Assembly: GCA_035575515.1 (NCBI GenBank)
Contig: DATLXU010000079.1
Location: 1 to 64,000, forward strand
Reading direction: 5' to 3'
Length of the DNA stretch: 64,000 bases
Source of the DNA: Blastocatellia bacterium
GTDB lineage: Bacteria > Acidobacteriota > Blastocatellia > UBA7656
Part shown: positions 1 through 5,743 of the stretch, one piece after another
Layout of the letters: each line of letters begins with the position of its first letter
Numbering within the stretch: the stretch's first letter is position 1
The notes under the pieces: model-generated
Database searches by the model: none
Told to the model about the DNA's origin: nothing
Seen by the model: only the letters and a program-made list of their open reading frames with translations
Program-made: the position numbers and the translations under genes

Positions 1-137
1 GGCGCGGCCATCTTGCGCCCCGGCGCTGATTGGCTGCGACTGATCGCCCGGCTTGAGGACTGGTATAGGCGCAGTGTTGGGCTGTGCCATTCATCACCAC
101 TGGCTGTGGCGTGGGCTAAAGAAAAATGATTTTTTAG

Positions 138-167
138 TTGACAAAAAATTGGGGGGGGGGGTAATAT
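138..167 (+). promoter_or_regulatory. sigma70-like promoter TTGACA(138-143)-18 nt spacer-TAATAT(162-167), with an 11-G homopolymer (151-161) filling the spacer
   Basis: Read directly: perfect -35 hexamer, AT-rich -10, and a G11 tract in the spacer. Points toward the + strand gene at 453. Confidence 0.4.
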
Positions 168-375
168 ATATCGCGTTTCAGATTGGGGGCAGAGCAGGCA
201 AAGGCGGGAACTCGTTCGGAGTTCTTCAGATGGATCGCCGGTTTTTTGGCTTGCGCGTTGAGAAGTAGGGTTTGAGCCATTGTTCAGCGAAGAAGGTTTT
301 GCGTTCCTCACGTTAATCAAAGACGAAATGAAACTAGCGGGCAATTAATGCGTTCATAATTGTCCGAAGGTAATA

Positions 376-446
376 ACAGGCAAGCCGGGCCCGTACTTGG
401 CAGGTCGAAGTCTGTCTTGTCTTCAACACAACAGCTACGAAAGGAG
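376..446 (+). promoter_or_regulatory. Structured 5' leader motif, copy A: stem 378-384/416-422, conserved loop cttggcaggtcgaagt, then caacacaaca..aaggag RBS
   Basis: 24/24 nt identity with 2932-2955 and a similar flanking stem. It ends in the SD aaggag 7 nt before the ATG at 453. Confidence 0.4.
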
Positions 447-452
447 CTTGAA

Positions 453-1229
453 ATGAAAAGCAGAAAGGTTCGATTTGCGTCTCTATTTACAGGTATGGCG
501 TTTCTTCTGACAGCATTTGCTCCATTCGGAACGCAGCACGCGATGCTGCCGCCCGACCCTGAAGGTGAGTCCACAGTCGCATACACGATGATAAACACTA
601 GCGGCGATCCGTCAGGAGTAGTTTCTGCCGCCTATGTTCTGGATGATACATCCGTGGTTTTCAATGTAGAACTCACCTTTACTACGGATCAGACAGCAAC
701 GTACAGAATAGACGGCAACCTTGACACTAATACCTATACGATCACTACACTCAGTTCCAGCACAATAACTCCTACAGACCTTCCGCCAATCTACGGAGCA
801 TCAATAGCAGTTTACACTGTAAAGAACGAGAGTGGAAAAATACAAAACGGCACTATAGATGTCCTGAGATGGCGAAGAACTGGGAGTGCAGTTGGCTGGG
901 TTTGTTACAGGGATGGTTTCGAGACGTACCCAACCTCTGTCACAGGAGGGCTGACTTGGCAGATACTAAGAGGGGCGGAAGATCCGCCGTACACAACCAA
1001 CCCGTACAACACTGACGTTTACAATGACGCATGGGGCAAGTACAAGAACTATGACTTCGGGGACCCAAATCTGTCTACGGTTGCTGTTCACTACATCAAG
1101 TTAGGACATAAAAATAGCGACCCTGACAACGTTCCTACAGGCGCAATCTCCGTAAAGTTAAAGAATGAAGGGAAGCGCGACTTCCACTTTGAGTACGAAA
1201 CAAACAAGCATCTTTGCGCTGTTCCGTAA
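453..1229 (+). CDS. secreted hypothetical protein (Ser/Thr/Asn-rich)
   Basis: ATG at 453 preceded by aaggag. N-terminal signal peptide MKSRKVRFASLFTGMAFLLTAFAPFG. The track ORF 360..1229 trimmed to the RBS-supported start. Confidence 0.6.
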   Translation: MKSRKVRFASLFTGMAFLLTAFAPFGTQHAMLPPDPEGESTVAYTMINTSGDPSGVVSAAYVLDDTSVVFNVELTFTTDQTATYRIDGNLDTNTYTITTLSSSTITPTDLPPIYGASIAVYTVKNESGKIQNGTIDVLRWRRTGSAVGWVCYRDGFETYPTSVTGGLTWQILRGAEDPPYTTNPYNTDVYNDAWGKYKNYDFGDPNLSTVAVHYIKLGHKNSDPDNVPTGAISVKLKNEGKRDFHFEYETNKHLCAVP

Positions 1230-1237
1230 GCCATAAC

Positions 1238-1281
1238 AGCCGTCGCGCCAAAGCTAAAGGTCTTGGCGCGACGGTTTTCAC
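1238..1281 (+). terminator. rho-independent terminator
   Basis: GC stem cagccgtcgcgccaa / ttggcgcgacgg followed by TTTTCA, immediately after the stop of 453..1229. Confidence 0.65.
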
Positions 1282-1309
1282 TCGACTCGGTTTGTTTGGA
1301 GGTTAGATT

Positions 1310-2875
1310 ATGTCTTTCTACAAAAGTGTAATAATCAATGCTCTTTGGTCGGCAGCCGTGTTGTTGTCAGCAATGGCAACCGTACTAGCAGGCCAACGCG
1401 AAATCCGCTTCCCCATAACCGATGGCGCTATCATCGCATCTCCCGATGAAATCGGGTTCCTTTATGATAGAGAAATCGGATTTGCTTATGGCTTCGAGCT
1501 TTCGCCCAATCAATTGCCTAATAGGTTATATTCGTTCTCTGTAGCTGAGAGTAAAGTGCTTGAGGAGTTCAATCTATCTGCCGAGTTTGGGTCGGGAATA
1601 GCGCATTTGAAATTCAACGCCCATGCTGATACGGGACTCATAGCAATTGCTTCTTTTGTTGCAGGCCGCCAGAAACTGCTTGTACTGAAGTTAGATGGAT
1701 CAGGGCATTTCTCTAAGTTATGGGCCATCGCCTTTCCTACTTCTGCTGGCGGATTCCCTTCGGCAATTTTCAACGAAGACGGAACGAAGATTTACGCATT
1801 CTACAAAGATGCGAAGCCAAGACTCGCCATGATTAATGCCGAAGATGGAACCATACTTGCCGCAACCGATTTGCCAACCGATTTTCCTGACACGACTGTC
1901 GAAGCGTTGCTGCTGTTTGACAGAACAGCTAAACGACCTATTGTGATGACCGACGACGACGTGCACATATTTGCGCCTGAGTCCGAGGGATTCCGAATCG
2001 AATGGAGCAGCCCCACCCCTGTGGGAACTCTTGCGGGAAACGGTATTACCATTAGCGAAGATGGGCGATTCCTGTTTGGATACACCGGCTCTGCGGTACA
2101 TATCGATCCACCCTTAAGCACGAATAACTTTCTGGCTCTTGACCTCAAGACCAAAGAGTTTCATCAGATCCTTCTTAAGAGCAAGCTGGCGCCATCTAGC
2201 AGCGCGGTGGCTTTCCATCTGCCTTCGGGCAGTATATTCGTGCCTTATTCAGGTAAAATCAAAATCAAAAAAAGCGGATTTGAGTTTGTTGGCAAAGGGA
2301 GCAACAAGCTCGACATCCTGCAGCTAGGCGCGGATGGTCAGATCACGCAGGTGACTCAATTAATCTTCCCTGCAGGCGGTGCTGATAGCAATCTCGCTAA
2401 CTTCATAAGCCCCCATAACAACATCGCGCTTTCCGAAACAGGCGCGATTGGCTTCATATCCTCGCTCACTCTCAAGCGCATTTTTGCCTTTGACACGATG
2501 ACCGGCGAGGTCGTTAACGAAATACCTGTGCCGGATGCTCCAACATTTATCTACCGACCGGAAGGGCACGACTTGATTGTTTACGCCAACGGGACAAATA
2601 AGCTTGTGGTTCTTGATATAGACCCCAAGCCTGTCATCAGCGAAATCAAAGTGAGCAAAAAGCGCACAATGATTCGTGGCGCGAATTTCCTCTCAGGCGC
2701 TCGCGTCGAGGTCAACGGCGAAGACTTAGGCATTGCAGACCGCAACCACGATAATCCCGGTCACGAAATCACGATCAATCGAGGCAAGAAAGATTTCCCT
2801 GCGGGGCAGGATGTTACTATCGTCATCACGAACCGCGACGGGCTTAGCTCAAAGCCGTTCACGTTCAGGCGATGA
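1310..2875 (+). CDS. secreted hypothetical protein, beta-propeller-like body with a C-terminal IPT/TIG-like domain
   Basis: ggagg RBS at 1296-1300. Signal peptide MSFYKSVIINALWSAAVLLSAMATVLAG. C-terminus has a bacterial Ig-like pattern (EVNGEDLG...VTIVITNRDG). Confidence 0.6.
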   Translation: MSFYKSVIINALWSAAVLLSAMATVLAGQREIRFPITDGAIIASPDEIGFLYDREIGFAYGFELSPNQLPNRLYSFSVAESKVLEEFNLSAEFGSGIAHLKFNAHADTGLIAIASFVAGRQKLLVLKLDGSGHFSKLWAIAFPTSAGGFPSAIFNEDGTKIYAFYKDAKPRLAMINAEDGTILAATDLPTDFPDTTVEALLLFDRTAKRPIVMTDDDVHIFAPESEGFRIEWSSPTPVGTLAGNGITISEDGRFLFGYTGSAVHIDPPLSTNNFLALDLKTKEFHQILLKSKLAPSSSAVAFHLPSGSIFVPYSGKIKIKKSGFEFVGKGSNKLDILQLGADGQITQVTQLIFPAGGADSNLANFISPHNNIALSETGAIGFISSLTLKRIFAFDTMTGEVVNEIPVPDAPTFIYRPEGHDLIVYANGTNKLVVLDIDPKPVISEIKVSKKRTMIRGANFLSGARVEVNGEDLGIADRNHDNPGHEITINRGKKDFPAGQDVTIVITNRDGLSSKPFTFRR

Positions 2876-2913
2876 GGTTTAACCGATGCGGCATTCGCTC
2901 GCATAAAACAAGA

Positions 2914-2981
2914 GGCAAGACAGATCCGCAACTTGGCAGGTCGAAGTCTGTCTTGCCTCAACACAACAACTCCGAAAGGAG
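2914..2981 (+). repeat. Structured leader motif, copy B (stem ggcaagacag/ctgtcttgcc, loop cttggcaggtcgaagt, caacacaacaac, aaaggag) with no ORF following
   Basis: Near-identical to 396-446 with compensatory stem changes. It sits between the stop of 1310..2875 and the 3' end of the minus-strand gene 3025..4122. Confidence 0.4.
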
Positions 2982-3024
2982 TGTGTCGCTACAATCTTAC
3001 GACAATCTGCGAACGCAACGCAAC

Positions 3025-4122
3025 TTATTGCTCGTTTTCTTTCTTCTGTGTCCCGCGCCGGATTTCCCGCTCGATCTTGAAGCGCATGTCGCGCGGCATC
3101 ACTTCATCAATCTTGTAATCCGACGGCACTTCAAAAAGCGTGCGCGCAGGCTCGCTCCGATTTATATTCGTCAACCTGAATGTCGTTTCGCCAAATCGCG
3201 GGTCGCTGTGGCGGCTCATTACGACCGTTTGCAATTCGGGCGAGTACCACGACTCGCTCACGATATTGATCGGCTGCTCGTTGCCTATCTCGCCCGCAGG
3301 TATCGTAATAGTCGAGCGCGTGCCTTCGGCCTCTACGCCTTCAATCACCTGCTTGCCTAAAGACTCAGTCTTCGGCTCATGTCGCGGCATTTGATGATCG
3401 AACGTCCTGACCATAATGCCCTCGCCCGGCGCGGGAGGCATCGGCGGCACGGGCGGAACAGGCGCGACTGCAGCGACGGCAGGCGCTGGCGGCGGAGGCG
3501 GCGCTGGCTCATCAAACTCGCCTTGTTGCGCTCTCGCAGATCGCGGCGCTCTCACGGCTCGCGGCGCGCCGGGCGGCGCGGACGGAGCTTCCGGGTGAAG
3601 GTACATGAAATGTATGTCCATCTTACGCGCGGTCTTGTCGCGCTCATTGAGAATGTAGTTCGCGCCTGCTACAGGATCGTTGATGAAAATCATCCGTTCC
3701 GATTCGCCCGTCACAGGAAATGGGCCGACTGCGCTTATGGTCTGCTCGCGCCGCGTGCGACCTTCGCTGTCGCGATAGACCGCAGCCGTGTTCTTGCGAA
3801 CTATGCGATTGCCGTCGGCAAGCGTCTGCACGGTTTCAGTTGTAGCCTGCGCCGAATAAGGCGCGCCCTTGACAACTTTTCCATTGAAGCTCATCTCGAT
3901 TGATGAGAAGACGAAGGCGTCGCCTCCGCTTCTGGGAGCAATCATTACTTCCGCTGGCGGCGCAGGACCGTCTTGATCAGTGACGGTGACGACGACTTGC
4001 CGCTCGACATTGTCACTCTTCGCTTTCTTCTCTTTCTGCGCGGATTGACTGACGGCGCTCGCGCCACTGGCAAGCAGCGCCAGCGCGCAGACTGTGGTTA
4101 ATAGAATCTTTTGTGTTCTCAT
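3025..4122 (-). CDS. secreted proline-rich hypothetical protein
   Basis: ATG at 4122 with gagagga upstream. Signal peptide MRTQKILLTTVCALALLASGASA. PAPPPPPAPAVAAVAPVPPVPPMPPAP linker. Confidence 0.6.
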   Translation of the reverse strand: MRTQKILLTTVCALALLASGASAVSQSAQKEKKAKSDNVERQVVVTVTDQDGPAPPAEVMIAPRSGGDAFVFSSIEMSFNGKVVKGAPYSAQATTETVQTLADGNRIVRKNTAAVYRDSEGRTRREQTISAVGPFPVTGESERMIFINDPVAGANYILNERDKTARKMDIHFMYLHPEAPSAPPGAPRAVRAPRSARAQQGEFDEPAPPPPPAPAVAAVAPVPPVPPMPPAPGEGIMVRTFDHQMPRHEPKTESLGKQVIEGVEAEGTRSTITIPAGEIGNEQPINIVSESWYSPELQTVVMSRHSDPRFGETTFRLTNINRSEPARTLFEVPSDYKIDEVMPRDMRFKIEREIRRGTQKKENEQ

Positions 4123-4235
4123 AATTTCCTCTCTGATCAAAGTTGTCAGTTCCCGGTTATCAGAATGCAGATGGCTTGTAACCGGCTCCAGGAGCCGTTT
4201 TCAAGGCGGCTGCTTTCTGACAACCGACAACTGCT

Positions 4236-5066
4236 TTAACGCACGAAGCGAATTGCGCGGGCCAGCCCGTCGTTGCCAACGACGACATCGGCTTTGATGC
4301 GCTCGCCTGCGCGCTCCAGATTTATCGGCAGCCCGAACTGTGCGAGCGCCGAGCGCGGCATCTCGACGCGCACGACCTGCCCGCCTTCCATGCGCGTCAG
4401 GTTGCCGCTTTGAATCAACGGAATGAAATCGGTCGCTATCTCGGCGGTGACCGGCATTGCGTCTTTGTCTTTGCTCAGAGCGTCGTCCTTGTTTTGAGGA
4501 TTGAGTTGAGCCGTCGCCTTGGCGGTTTCGTTCTTGCGCCGGTTGACGCGCTGCGTTTGCTTCAGCGCTGCCTGATTGCCAGTTGCGTTTGCAGTCATTT
4601 GCTTATCGCCCGACAAGGAATTCTCAGGCGTAGGCTCAGTTGATTGATTGCCTATCTGCGGTTGAGATTGCGGCGCGACTCCTTCTTTCGCCCGCGCGGG
4701 CGGCGATTGCTTCTCGACGCGAAGCATGACAAGCGCGACCACGACAATAATCAATGCGATTGATGCCGCAACCGCCCATCGCAGCCAGCCGCCTGCTCGC
4801 GTCGTCACTGCTGCTTCTGCCTGTCGCCGCCTGAATGCTGCGACGAGCGCAGCCTCGACGCTCGGCGCAGCCTGCTCAGATTCCATCTTTGCAGCCAATC
4901 TCTTCAGCCCTGCGGTGAGCATCATCTCATCCGCGAGCCGCGCGCTGCAACGCTCGCACTCTTTTGCGTGAGCGTGCGCGCTCGCCTTTGCCTCCGCGTC
5001 CATAATCTGATCGCGCGCAAGGTCGTTGATTATTGATTCAAAACTATGACAGTTCATGCGAAACAC
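4236..5066 (-). CDS. anti-sigma factor, zinc-finger (HxxxCxxC) type with one TM helix
   Basis: N-terminus HAHAKECERCSARL, TM segment WAVAASIALIIVVVALVML. Overlaps the stop of the upstream ECF sigma gene. Confidence 0.6.
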   Translation of the reverse strand: MFRMNCHSFESIINDLARDQIMDAEAKASAHAHAKECERCSARLADEMMLTAGLKRLAAKMESEQAAPSVEAALVAAFRRRQAEAAVTTRAGGWLRWAVAASIALIIVVVALVMLRVEKQSPPARAKEGVAPQSQPQIGNQSTEPTPENSLSGDKQMTANATGNQAALKQTQRVNRRKNETAKATAQLNPQNKDDALSKDKDAMPVTAEIATDFIPLIQSGNLTRMEGGQVVRVEMPRSALAQFGLPINLERAGERIKADVVVGNDGLARAIRFVR

Positions 5067-5743
5067 CTCGCAGGGCTTATTGCCTGTGAAGCCCTGTCTT
5101 CATTTGTCGCGCGCAATTTTTCCACGAGCAGCGCGCGCGCACGGTGCAGCCGCGACCGGACAGTTCCAACCGCGCAGCCAATCGCCGCAGCCGCATCCGC
5201 ATAGCTCAATTCATTCAGCTCGCACAGCACAATCACCTCGCGGTAATGCGCGGGCAGCGCAAGCACCGCGTTGCGAACCGTCTCGACCATCTCGCCGCGC
5301 GTCAGATCGCCGAGCGGGTCGCCCGGCGCGATAAGATTCGTCGCGAGCGCATCCGCTTCTTCCGTCGCTTCGGTCATAGGAACATAGACGCGCTCGCGCT
5401 CGAATCGTCGCAGCACAAGGTTGCGCGCAATCCCGTAAAGGTACGCGGCGACGCTCCCGCGCGCGGGGTCGAACCTGCCAGCATCGCGCATTAGGATCAT
5501 AAAGACCTCTTGCGTGATGTCTTCGGCTATGGCGCGCGAGCCGCTCATCTGAAGAGCAAAGCGATAGACGCCAGACTGTCGCCTGCGATAAAGCTCTGTG
5601 AATGCGGCCTCGTCGCCATTTCCGATGAGCCGCAGCAGGTCGCCGTCACTGGGGGTTGCGGGCAAAATCTTTCCTCCAGTCTCGAAACGCTCAGCTTTTG
5701 CGCTGTCACAAATGATTCGCGCGAGCCGACAGAAAAGTTCCAA
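5054..5743 (-). CDS. RNA polymerase ECF-type sigma factor (sigma-24 family)
   Basis: Region 2 (DITQEVFMILMR) and region 4 (LPAHYREVIVLCELNELSYADAAAAIGCAVGTVRSRLHRAR). The track start is a TTG; the true start is uncertain. Confidence 0.75.
   Translation of the reverse strand: MELFCRLARIICDSAKAERFETGGKILPATPSDGDLLRLIGNGDEAAFTELYRRRQSGVYRFALQMSGSRAIAEDITQEVFMILMRDAGRFDPARGSVAAYLYGIARNLVLRRFERERVYVPMTEATEEADALATNLIAPGDPLGDLTRGEMVETVRNAVLALPAHYREVIVLCELNELSYADAAAAIGCAVGTVRSRLHRARALLVEKLRATNEDRASQAISPARCFA

Follow-up and report, generated by a model that had tools for sequence, protein, structure and literature searches.

In ribosomal-protein leaders and in the targets of CsrA/RsmA, a protein binds an mRNA leader in which the Shine-Dalgarno (SD) sequence is sequestered, and the Rsm regulon consists largely of secreted products. 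Each of the PyrR-binding loops of the pyr system and of the ribonucleic antiterminator (RAT) sites of the bgl/sac systems lies in front of a gene and overlaps with an intrinsic terminator, and riboswitches for cyclic di-guanosine monophosphate (c-di-GMP) often precede genes for secreted, adhesion or protease proteins. Here, we compare with these systems an RNA element, the P1-P2 module, which occurs twice (copy 1 and copy 2) in an operon of 2 open reading frames (ORFs), ORF1 and ORF2, in a 64-kb stretch of DNA (hereafter the window) from a Blastocatellia population known from metagenome-assembled genomes (MAGs). The module, composed of a hairpin P1, a linker and an SD-containing hairpin P2, is a motif without a match in Rfam and previously undescribed, which resembles the protein-bound SD-sequestering leaders in kind and is unusual in having a twin at the 3' end.

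In common with protein-bound SD-sequestering leaders, copy 1 lies in a structured 5' untranslated region (UTR), with the SD in a hairpin and an adjoining conserved hairpin that could dock a factor, and the gene products are largely secreted, as in the Rsm regulon. Unlike such leaders, the module matches no Rfam leader family and has a gene-less twin in the 3' UTR; unlike in the case of ribosomal-protein leaders and CsrA, its genes encode exported proteins, which cannot autoregulate, and the GGA required by CsrA is not conserved in the apical loop of P1. As with PyrR and RAT sites, the same hairpin, presumed here to bind a protein, is repeated along one transcript, but P1 lacks a U-tract on the + strand and the second copy precedes nothing. 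The c-di-GMP-I/II riboswitches are likewise multi-hairpin leaders with GNRA tetraloops in front of secreted, adhesion or protease genes, but the module gave no match to those Rfam models at E <= 10, and here the stem sequence itself is conserved. Repetitive extragenic palindromes and bacterial interspersed mosaic elements (REP/BIME), miniature inverted-repeat transposable elements (MITE) and IS200/IS605-type hairpins share with the module the form of short palindromic direct copies flanking genes, from which it differs by having just 2 copies in 64 kb, a fixed position and orientation relative to start and stop codons, and no transposase. A 3'-UTR element functionally related to the translation-initiation region has precedents in icaR of Staphylococcus aureus, the 3' UTR of which is complementary to the 5' UTR (PMC3868564), and in hbs of Bacillus subtilis (PMC5737220). 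Similarly, copy 2 holds an anti-SD sequence (CUCC) and its arms could pair with those of copy 1; unlike in icaR and hbs, the elements are direct repeats that each fold on themselves rather than complements, and no evidence was obtained for a 5'-3' duplex between copy 1 and copy 2.

A hairpin present twice in one operon

The 24-mer CTTGGCAGGTCGAAGTCTGTCTTG is present exactly twice in the window, at positions 396-419 and 2932-2955, both on the + strand, and had no match in 100 dinucleotide shuffles of the window even with up to 3 mismatches allowed, none being expected by chance, which confirms the 24/24 identity reported in the preliminary description of this DNA. The likeness between the copies is wider than the 24-mer, extending in a pairwise alignment over approximately 378-447 versus 2913-2982 and comprising GGCAAG, the core, CAACACAACA and CGAAAGGAG. 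Both copies form hairpin P1 (379-421 in copy 1, scoring 75 bits with covariance model R1 and 77 bits with model R2; 2912-2959 in copy 2, 82.8 bits with R2), in which the lower helix P1a (10 bp) is separated from the upper helix P1b (5 bp) by an asymmetric internal loop, with 6-9 nt on the 5' side, and P1b is capped by an apical loop of 4 nt (CAGG, UAGG and similar). In copy 1, P1a spans 379-388/412-421, the internal loop 389-395, P1b 396-400/405-410 and the apical CAGG 401-404; the corresponding parts of copy 2 are 2912-2924/2947-2959 (13 bp), 2925-2931, 2932-2936/2941-2946 and 2937-2940 (CAGG). Hairpin P1 is followed in copy 1 by the linker UUCAACACAACA and the P2 region (422-452), including the SD AAGGAG at 441-446, and in copy 2 by the linker AACACAACA and P2 (2960-2992; ACUCC-GAAA-GGAGU with flanks ACAC/GUGU), with an SD-like AAGGAG at 2976-2981.

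The arms pair as first described: those of copy 2 (GAGGCAAGACAGA/UCUGUCUUGCCUC) form 13 perfect pairs out of 13, the region folding at -33.7 kcal/mol (z = -6.4 versus shuffles), and those of copy 1 (GGCAAGcCGG/CUGuCUUGUC) pair with one C.U mismatch and two G.U pairs. Other structural details of the preliminary description had to be revised. The differences between the 2 window copies had been read as compensatory, but the identical core includes the 3' arm, and the changes in the 5' arm of copy 1 produce wobbles and a mismatch, genuine compensatory changes being found in other genomes only. The 16-nt loop CUUGGCAGGUCGAAGU, thought to be exposed, is mostly paired, CUUGG with UCGA(A)G in P1b, with only the 4-nt apical loop left open.

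Distribution and covariation in relatives

Relatives were represented by Blastocatellia/Acidobacteria MAGs and metagenomes, in which related sequences are designated by L numbers. Five homologs of ORF1 (42-61% identity) and 8 of ORF2 (32-57% identity) were found, and their contigs carry the element, its core being almost identical in loci where ORF1/ORF2 are only 32-61% identical to those of the window. A metagenome scan with a pattern derived from the loop sequence returned no matches, and a second scan, with a pattern built on the P1 arms, recovered 11 more true copies (45-62 bits, model R1) and 4 other matches attributable to chance. In total, 20 distinct copies in 16 loci were recognised with a covariance model of the kind proposed in the preliminary description (59-97 bits, model R2), 18 of them beyond the 2 in the window and all on the same strand as the adjacent genes, whereas a filter-free R2 search of the window itself found only the 2 copies. 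The 17 matches of the 18-mer GGCAGGTCGAAGTCTGTC in GTDB representatives, among which the source species is not included, equal the number expected by chance, fall in scattered taxa and have no flank similarity. With Rfam 15 at the gathering threshold, no matches were obtained in the window or in 9 related loci; at E <= 10, positions 1-3200 gave only 2 chance matches to long non-coding RNAs, elsewhere in the stretch. The RNA families Acido-1 and Acido-Lenti-1, considered as candidates, are not cis-regulatory and did not match, and a limited literature search did not find the motif described.

Helix P1a, formed by the arms GGCAAGACAG and CUGUCUUGCC, is 96% paired and nearly invariant in a MAFFT alignment of the 20 sequences. 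Among the 13 copies recovered through protein homology, it shows 9 compensatory double changes at 5 positions, in L027, L030 and L033 copy 2, as well as 5 wobble changes, with 8 of 130 cells unpaired; the distance from arm to arm is constant at 22-25 nt. In P1b, 90.6% of the cells are paired over the 20 copies, mostly as U.G and G.U, and compensatory changes replace C-G by G-C in L026 and by U-A in L031. For P1a, P1b and the outer part of P2 together, 91% of the cells are paired, compared to at most 47% when the partners are slid, and 5 pairs are changed on both sides, a number reached by 3 of 500 shuffles. G.U/U.G cells number 31 versus 13 for A.C/C.A, and this excess, together with the covariation and the constant orientation, indicates an RNA of the + strand rather than a DNA palindrome.

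In leaders, the structure continues upstream of P1 with hairpin P0 (GGGCAAUUA/UAAUUGUCC, 339-365), which is connected to P1 by the linker J0/1 (GAAGGUAAUAACA, 366-378; family consensus GAAA..GAUAACA). Across 12 leaders, 89% of the P0 cells are paired (slid controls, <=57%), and its 4 compensatory pairs (9 cells) give a covariation score of 0.439, reached by none of 500 shuffles; P0 is present in the centroid fold and restricted to copies in 5' leaders. An ops/JUMPstart-like sequence noticed in the leader, GGCGGTAG, was rejected as such, being the 5' arm of P0. The check for covariation called for in the preliminary description was positive for P0, P1a and P1b, with many G.U pairs, although in P1a covariation is confined to the divergent members. 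Two linkers are near-invariant, GAUAACA between P0 and P1 and CUCAACAC between P1 and P2. Alignment of the leaders also revealed a conserved upstream block (GUUCCUCAC, 303-311), in which CCUCA(C) is conserved in 7 of 14 leader-type copies; RNAalifold on 5 sequences pairs GUUCC of this block with GGAGC of the SD, with little covariation. The element had been delimited at 376-446, but the leader is larger, reaching upstream at least to P0 and the block at 303-311.

Hairpin P2 pairs an outer ACAC with GUGU and an inner CUCC or CCUU with GGAG or AAGG, the SD included. It is present in the predicted minimum-free-energy fold of most of the 20 copies, those behind ORF2-family genes included, at -4 to -9 kcal/mol. 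The outer CAC/GUG pairs are kept in 16-19 of the 20 copies, with one compensatory change, and the inner pairing survives changes in both arms, CUCC/GGAG becoming CUUCC/GGAAG in L055 copy 2. With 18 further copies, covarying helices and an SD-occluding hairpin, the proposal that this is an RNA element rather than a chance resemblance is upheld, and we consider it very probable that the module in front of genes is a conserved structured RNA leader that occludes the SD.

A complementarity was observed between GCAGGUCGAA in the copy 1 hairpin (401-410) and UUCGAUUUGC in ORF1 codons 6-9 (468-477), amounting to 10 bp including two G.U pairs. The duplex exceeds shuffled targets (z = -3.5), and by eye 8-10 of its pairs are kept in L026, L027 and L028. 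Pairing of the P1 loop with the early coding region or the upstream block, evaluated over the whole family, gave no significant signal and was rejected.

Two positional classes of copies

The copies fall into 2 classes. All 15 C1-type copies lie before a gene and on its strand, with 6-9 nt between SD and ATG, as expected of a cis-regulatory leader, whereas the 5 C2-type copies do not occupy such a position. In the window, 6 bases separate AAGGAG of copy 1 from the ATG of ORF1 at 453. The genes preceded by C1-type copies, which the preliminary description had marked for inspection, belong to unrelated families, all with signal peptides and long arginine-rich n-regions: the ORF1 family, S8 subtilisin-like proteases with an I9 propeptide and LamG (e.g., L047), a 314-aa protein and a family of approximately 190 aa ending in DDGxDN that is not detectably related to ORF1. 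One MAG contains at least 2 leader-bearing operons (locus tags VJH03_11120 and VJH03_17165). The n-region motifs MxxLxxxxxxSRNR, SNRRR and QRRN, possibly resembling those of the twin-arginine translocation (Tat) system, are common to otherwise unrelated mature proteins (L034, L047, L039, L051 and L055). These shared n-regions point to a single travelling module made up of the leader and the signal-peptide start.

The C2-type copies (window, L028, L031, L033 and L055) lack a start codon and come 35-48 nt after the stop codon of the ORF2-family gene that closes the operon. In L033 and L055, identity of the ORF2 protein to its window counterpart falls as low as 33%. Copy 2 of the window starts 36 nt past the ORF2 stop codon (2875) and faces the convergent gene at 3025-4140; no start codon follows its AAGGAG and no ORF lies behind it, TAC (2990-2992) standing where copy 1 has ATG. 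Accordingly, of the 2 copies initially described as 5' leaders, only copy 1 is one. Where the contigs continue beyond C2-type copies, the next gene is convergent and unrelated between loci. Copy 2 of L055 is followed at approximately 25 nt by a perfect intrinsic terminator, with a stem of 12 bp and then AGAUUUUUUU, which places this copy inside the 3' UTR.

Several observations concern the C2-type copies individually. The position of ATG is occupied by TAC in the window and L055 (approximately 2741-2743 in the latter), by TAG in L031 and by TAA in L028, and the window and L055 copies both read GUGUC(G/A)C(C)UACAA despite being distant. In L031, positions 1134-2277 contain only the 3' part of an ORF1 homolog before ORF2, the 5' leader copy being absent and the 3' copy intact; either a rearrangement or a chimeric assembly could account for this. 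On the - strand of the window, the copy 2 stem (2912-2959) is followed by UUGUUUUAU, and a long A-run lies upstream of copy 2 on the + strand in L033 as it does in the window; read on the - strand, the stem may serve as an incidental intrinsic terminator for the convergent gene. No conserved small ORF was found after copy 2.

Evolution of the twin copies

In L028 and L055, the 2 copies of one operon are each other's nearest relatives. Copy 2 of the window is a mosaic, in which the 5' half, AGGCAAGACAGAUCCGCA, matches that of L031 copy 2 and the 3' half, from the core to the SD, matches window copy 1. This pattern bears the signature of a gene-conversion tract superimposed on vertical conservation. 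Hence, the 24/24 identity of the window copies reflects both selection and conversion.

Candidate functions of the module

The reading we favour, and rate as evenly poised, is that the module is a new conserved structured cis-regulatory RNA on the mRNAs of secreted proteins, to which a trans-acting factor binds at P1 so as to control translation, and that the 3' UTR offers this factor a second site. The leader (approximately 303-452) would fold as P0, P1 and P2, with P2 pairing the SD 6-9 nt before the start codon. P1 and the linkers GAUAACA and CUCAACAC would be the docking site of a trans-acting factor, most likely an RNA-binding protein, the binding of which would set the degree to which P2 blocks ribosome entry and perhaps also the lifetime of the mRNA. 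A docking role, raised already in the preliminary description among the possible functions, can reasonably be inferred; the specific mechanism of protein docking we put forward tentatively, as a possibility with somewhat less than an even claim. Exoprotein genes, namely ORF1/ORF2-type operons, S8 proteases and other genes for signal-peptide proteins, would come under one post-transcriptional control. Copy 2, a P1-P2 module without P0 or start codon, would be transcribed as the 3' UTR of the same operon and provide a second binding site on the mRNA, serving cooperative binding, titration or protection of the 3' end; its similarity to copy 1 would be maintained by selection and occasional gene conversion. 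We consider it somewhat more likely than not that copy 2 has a function of its own.

A number of points weigh against this explanation. Copy 1 of the window is no more stable in its region than shuffled sequences (z about 0), its minimum-free-energy fold favours a different pairing across P1, and its P2 is weak, at only -3.9 kcal/mol. On the MAFFT alignment, covariation in P1a taken alone is weak, and the sequences of P1a and the linkers vary less than those of RNA helices usually do, an invariance that is in part ascertainment, the arm-pattern metagenome scan having demanded those bases. Clades have different inner parts of P1, as do even 2 operons of a single genome (L034 versus L052), which accords poorly with one shared sequence-specific partner. 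Three ORF2-family operons (L032, L034 and L052) have no copy 2, and copy 2 could be maintained largely by gene conversion. Finally, regulation and its direction are purely what we infer.

Among the alternatives, a riboswitch-like aptamer, in which a pocket built from P0, P1 and the linkers would bind a ligand, e.g., a second messenger or a signal of envelope state or nutrients, and P2 or the GUUCC block would act as expression platform, is unlikely. It would account for the multi-helix form with near-invariant junctions GAUAACA and CUCAACAC, the covarying peripheral P0, the occluded SD and the three-way-junction-like arrangement in which the GUUCC:GGAGC helix of RNAalifold closes P0 and P1, and it recalls the c-di-GMP riboswitches often found before secreted or adhesion proteins; but that closing helix is almost without covariation, no Rfam riboswitch matches even at E <= 10, a mostly sequence-invariant 10-bp helix is atypical of aptamers, the controlled genes, for assorted secreted proteins, have no common metabolite, and copy 2 is conserved without P0, upstream block or gene. 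Alternatively, P1 might be an mRNA processing or stability element, placed at both transcript ends as an entry or blocking site for RNases so as to yield a stable exoprotein mRNA without a dedicated regulator. The same hairpin indeed occurs at two places, close to where the coding part begins and, in the 3' UTR, shortly ahead of the L055 terminator; window copy 2 has a highly stable stem (z = -6.4), the predicted 5' UTR is long, at about 280 nt, and UTR control of RNase access is documented for icaR (PMC3868564) and hbs (PMC5737220). Protective hairpins, however, need no fixed sequence, whereas deeply diverged members retain the sequences of the P1a arms, P1b and the linkers; copy 1 lies approximately 205 nt from the presumed transcript start, and hence is not 5'-terminal unless the RNA is processed; and the 3' copy is missing from 3 ORF2-family operons. 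This reading, too, is unlikely. We judge it no more credible that copy 2 is functionless, either a relic of the leader and first codons of a lost third gene or a duplicated 5' end, with gene conversion acting between direct repeats 2.5 kb apart. The L055 copies stay alike past the start-codon position (AAA A.T CA.) before decaying, window copy 2 shares GUGUGUCGC with the L034 leader up to the position of the L034 ATG, and the mosaic structure of window copy 2 and the nearest-neighbour relation of the intra-operon copies in L028 and L055 point the same way. Against a relic stand the same position of copy 2 in 5 operons with ORF2 identity down to 33%, the P2 pairing kept through changes in both arms of L055 copy 2, the 3 compensatory changes in P1a of L033 copy 2, and the match of the 5' half of window copy 2 to its L031 ortholog rather than to copy 1, indicating vertical conservation and not only homogenisation.

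The near-invariance of both arms, their constant spacing of 22-25 nt (approximately 3 helical turns centre to centre), the 2 sites per operon and the nearby pair of genes for an extracytoplasmic function (ECF) sigma factor and an anti-sigma factor in the window could alternatively point to a DNA operator, with the inverted repeat GGCAAGACAG-N22-25-CTGTCTTGCC as 2 half-sites for a transcription factor, a roadblock or looping between the copies. This is very improbable: divergent members change both arms complementarily (the 9 double changes), the wobbles are strand-specific (31 G.U versus 13 A.C cells), the arms enclose a further, G.U-rich helix, the adjoining P0 and P2 behave as RNA, the orientation to genes never flips, no promoter-like hexamers adjoin the element, and the gene tables for loci of other species do not show the sigma/anti-sigma neighbourhood. 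Least credible is a Rho-dependent attenuator or terminator, in which P1 and the C/A-rich, G-poor linker CUCAACACAAC load Rho, ribosomes preventing termination at copy 1 and termination always occurring at copy 2. Such a device would explain an SD without a start codon at the operon end and the lack of an intrinsic terminator after ORF2 on the + strand of the window, but the C-rich stretch measures only about 12-15 nt, C does not consistently outnumber G in the 80 nt that follow P1, and L055 has its own intrinsic terminator just past copy 2.

Known Rfam families, intrinsic terminators on the + strand, attC sites and promoter readings of the element are excluded. On the + strand, CUCAACAC comes directly after P1, and P2 has no U-run behind it. 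An integron attC site would need RYYYAAC (R'') on the 5' side and GTTRRRY (R') on the 3' side of its imperfect palindrome; here, both flanks end in AAC (GAUAAC and CUCAAC), with no GTTRRRY and no integrase nearby. As a sigma54 promoter, the element offers TGGCAG followed by TTGC only after 13 nt (TGGCAC-N5-TTGC being needed), and the GG becomes TGGTAG or TGAGCG in relatives; as an ECF-sigma promoter, it lacks an AAC/CGT pair at 16-17 nt spacing, and the ECF sigma gene nearby has no copy upstream of it; and for sigma70, spacing and key bases do not fit. A CsrA/RsmA site, which would typically show at least 2 GGA motifs in hairpin loops with one of them overlapping the SD, was dismissed, the sole conserved GGA being the SD in the 3' arm of P2 and the apical loops of P1 reading CAGG, UAGG, CUCG or GCGG. 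A coding explanation was rejected: the core is crossed by a frame starting with TTG (MAGRSLSC...), but in L028 this frame runs into a stop immediately. A search for tRNA and transfer-messenger RNA (tmRNA) found none; viral contigs gave no match to the exact pattern tried, and a phage origin was rejected, as were extra arms acting in trans, GGCAAGACAG not occurring elsewhere in the window beyond chance. As regards a dispersed repeat, the window has 2 copies in 64 kb, and the position is fixed in 20 of 20 copies.

Other features of the locus

A putative sigma70-like promoter, found by consensus scan (TTGACA-18 nt-TAATAT, 138-167, + strand), lies approximately 205 nt upstream of P1 of copy 1 and, judging from its sequence, likely marks the start of a leader of approximately 280 nt; the relative L028 has TTGACA-16-TATAAT at the aligned position. 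The spacer of the window promoter is filled by a run of 11 G residues (151-161), in place of which another assembly of the same population (L004) has 12, and 3 Logan contigs (L006-L008) all start within the poly-G run. This length difference could be slipped-strand phase variation of the spacer (18 versus 19 nt) or a homopolymer error of sequencing or assembly.

ORF1 (453-1229, + strand), the first gene after the leader, encodes 258 aa, and ORF2 (1310-2875, + strand), the last gene of the operon, 521 aa; both products have a signal peptide and belong to no Pfam family. Domain matches of ORF2 are weak and beta-propeller-like, and a sequence search of the PDB with ORF1 and ORF2 was uninformative. 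Between the 2 genes, a terminator-like hairpin (CCGUCGCGCCAA..UUGGCGCGACGG followed by UUUU, 1240-1278, + strand; 12-bp stem, -30 kcal/mol, z = -4.1) has counterparts in L026, L029 and L031, not all with the U-run, and may be a partial terminator or a stabiliser setting the ORF1:ORF2 ratio. Upstream of the convergent gene at 3025-4140, the - strand (4236-5743) encodes the ECF sigma factor (Sigma70_r2/r4) and a likely anti-sigma factor. In the gene tables, this neighbourhood is confined to the same-species assemblies L001-L008 among the module-bearing loci, and neither ORF3 nor the sigma/anti-sigma pair is seen beside the loci of other species.

Implications

Acidobacteria are abundant in soil, yet their gene regulation is almost unstudied and very few RNA motifs have been described from them. 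A leader shared by the mRNAs of proteases and other exported proteins would mark a regulon and, as an RNA of approximately 75 nt with defined helices, would offer a handle for finding its regulator. More speculatively, and with a low probability in our estimate, P1-P2 would be the address tag of a dedicated post-transcriptional exported-protein regulon in Acidobacteria, an RNA-binding protein or an RNA recognising P1 in the leader as well as in the 3' UTR, bridging both ends of the mRNA and gating translation or coupling it to export, in a 5'/3' closed loop made by twin hairpins rather than by complementary UTRs. A conserved, gene-less copy in the 3' UTR is unusual in bacteria and provides a simple test for matched elements at both mRNA ends; if copy 2 is only a converted relic, the operon would instead be a case of gene conversion preserving a non-coding repeat over long times.

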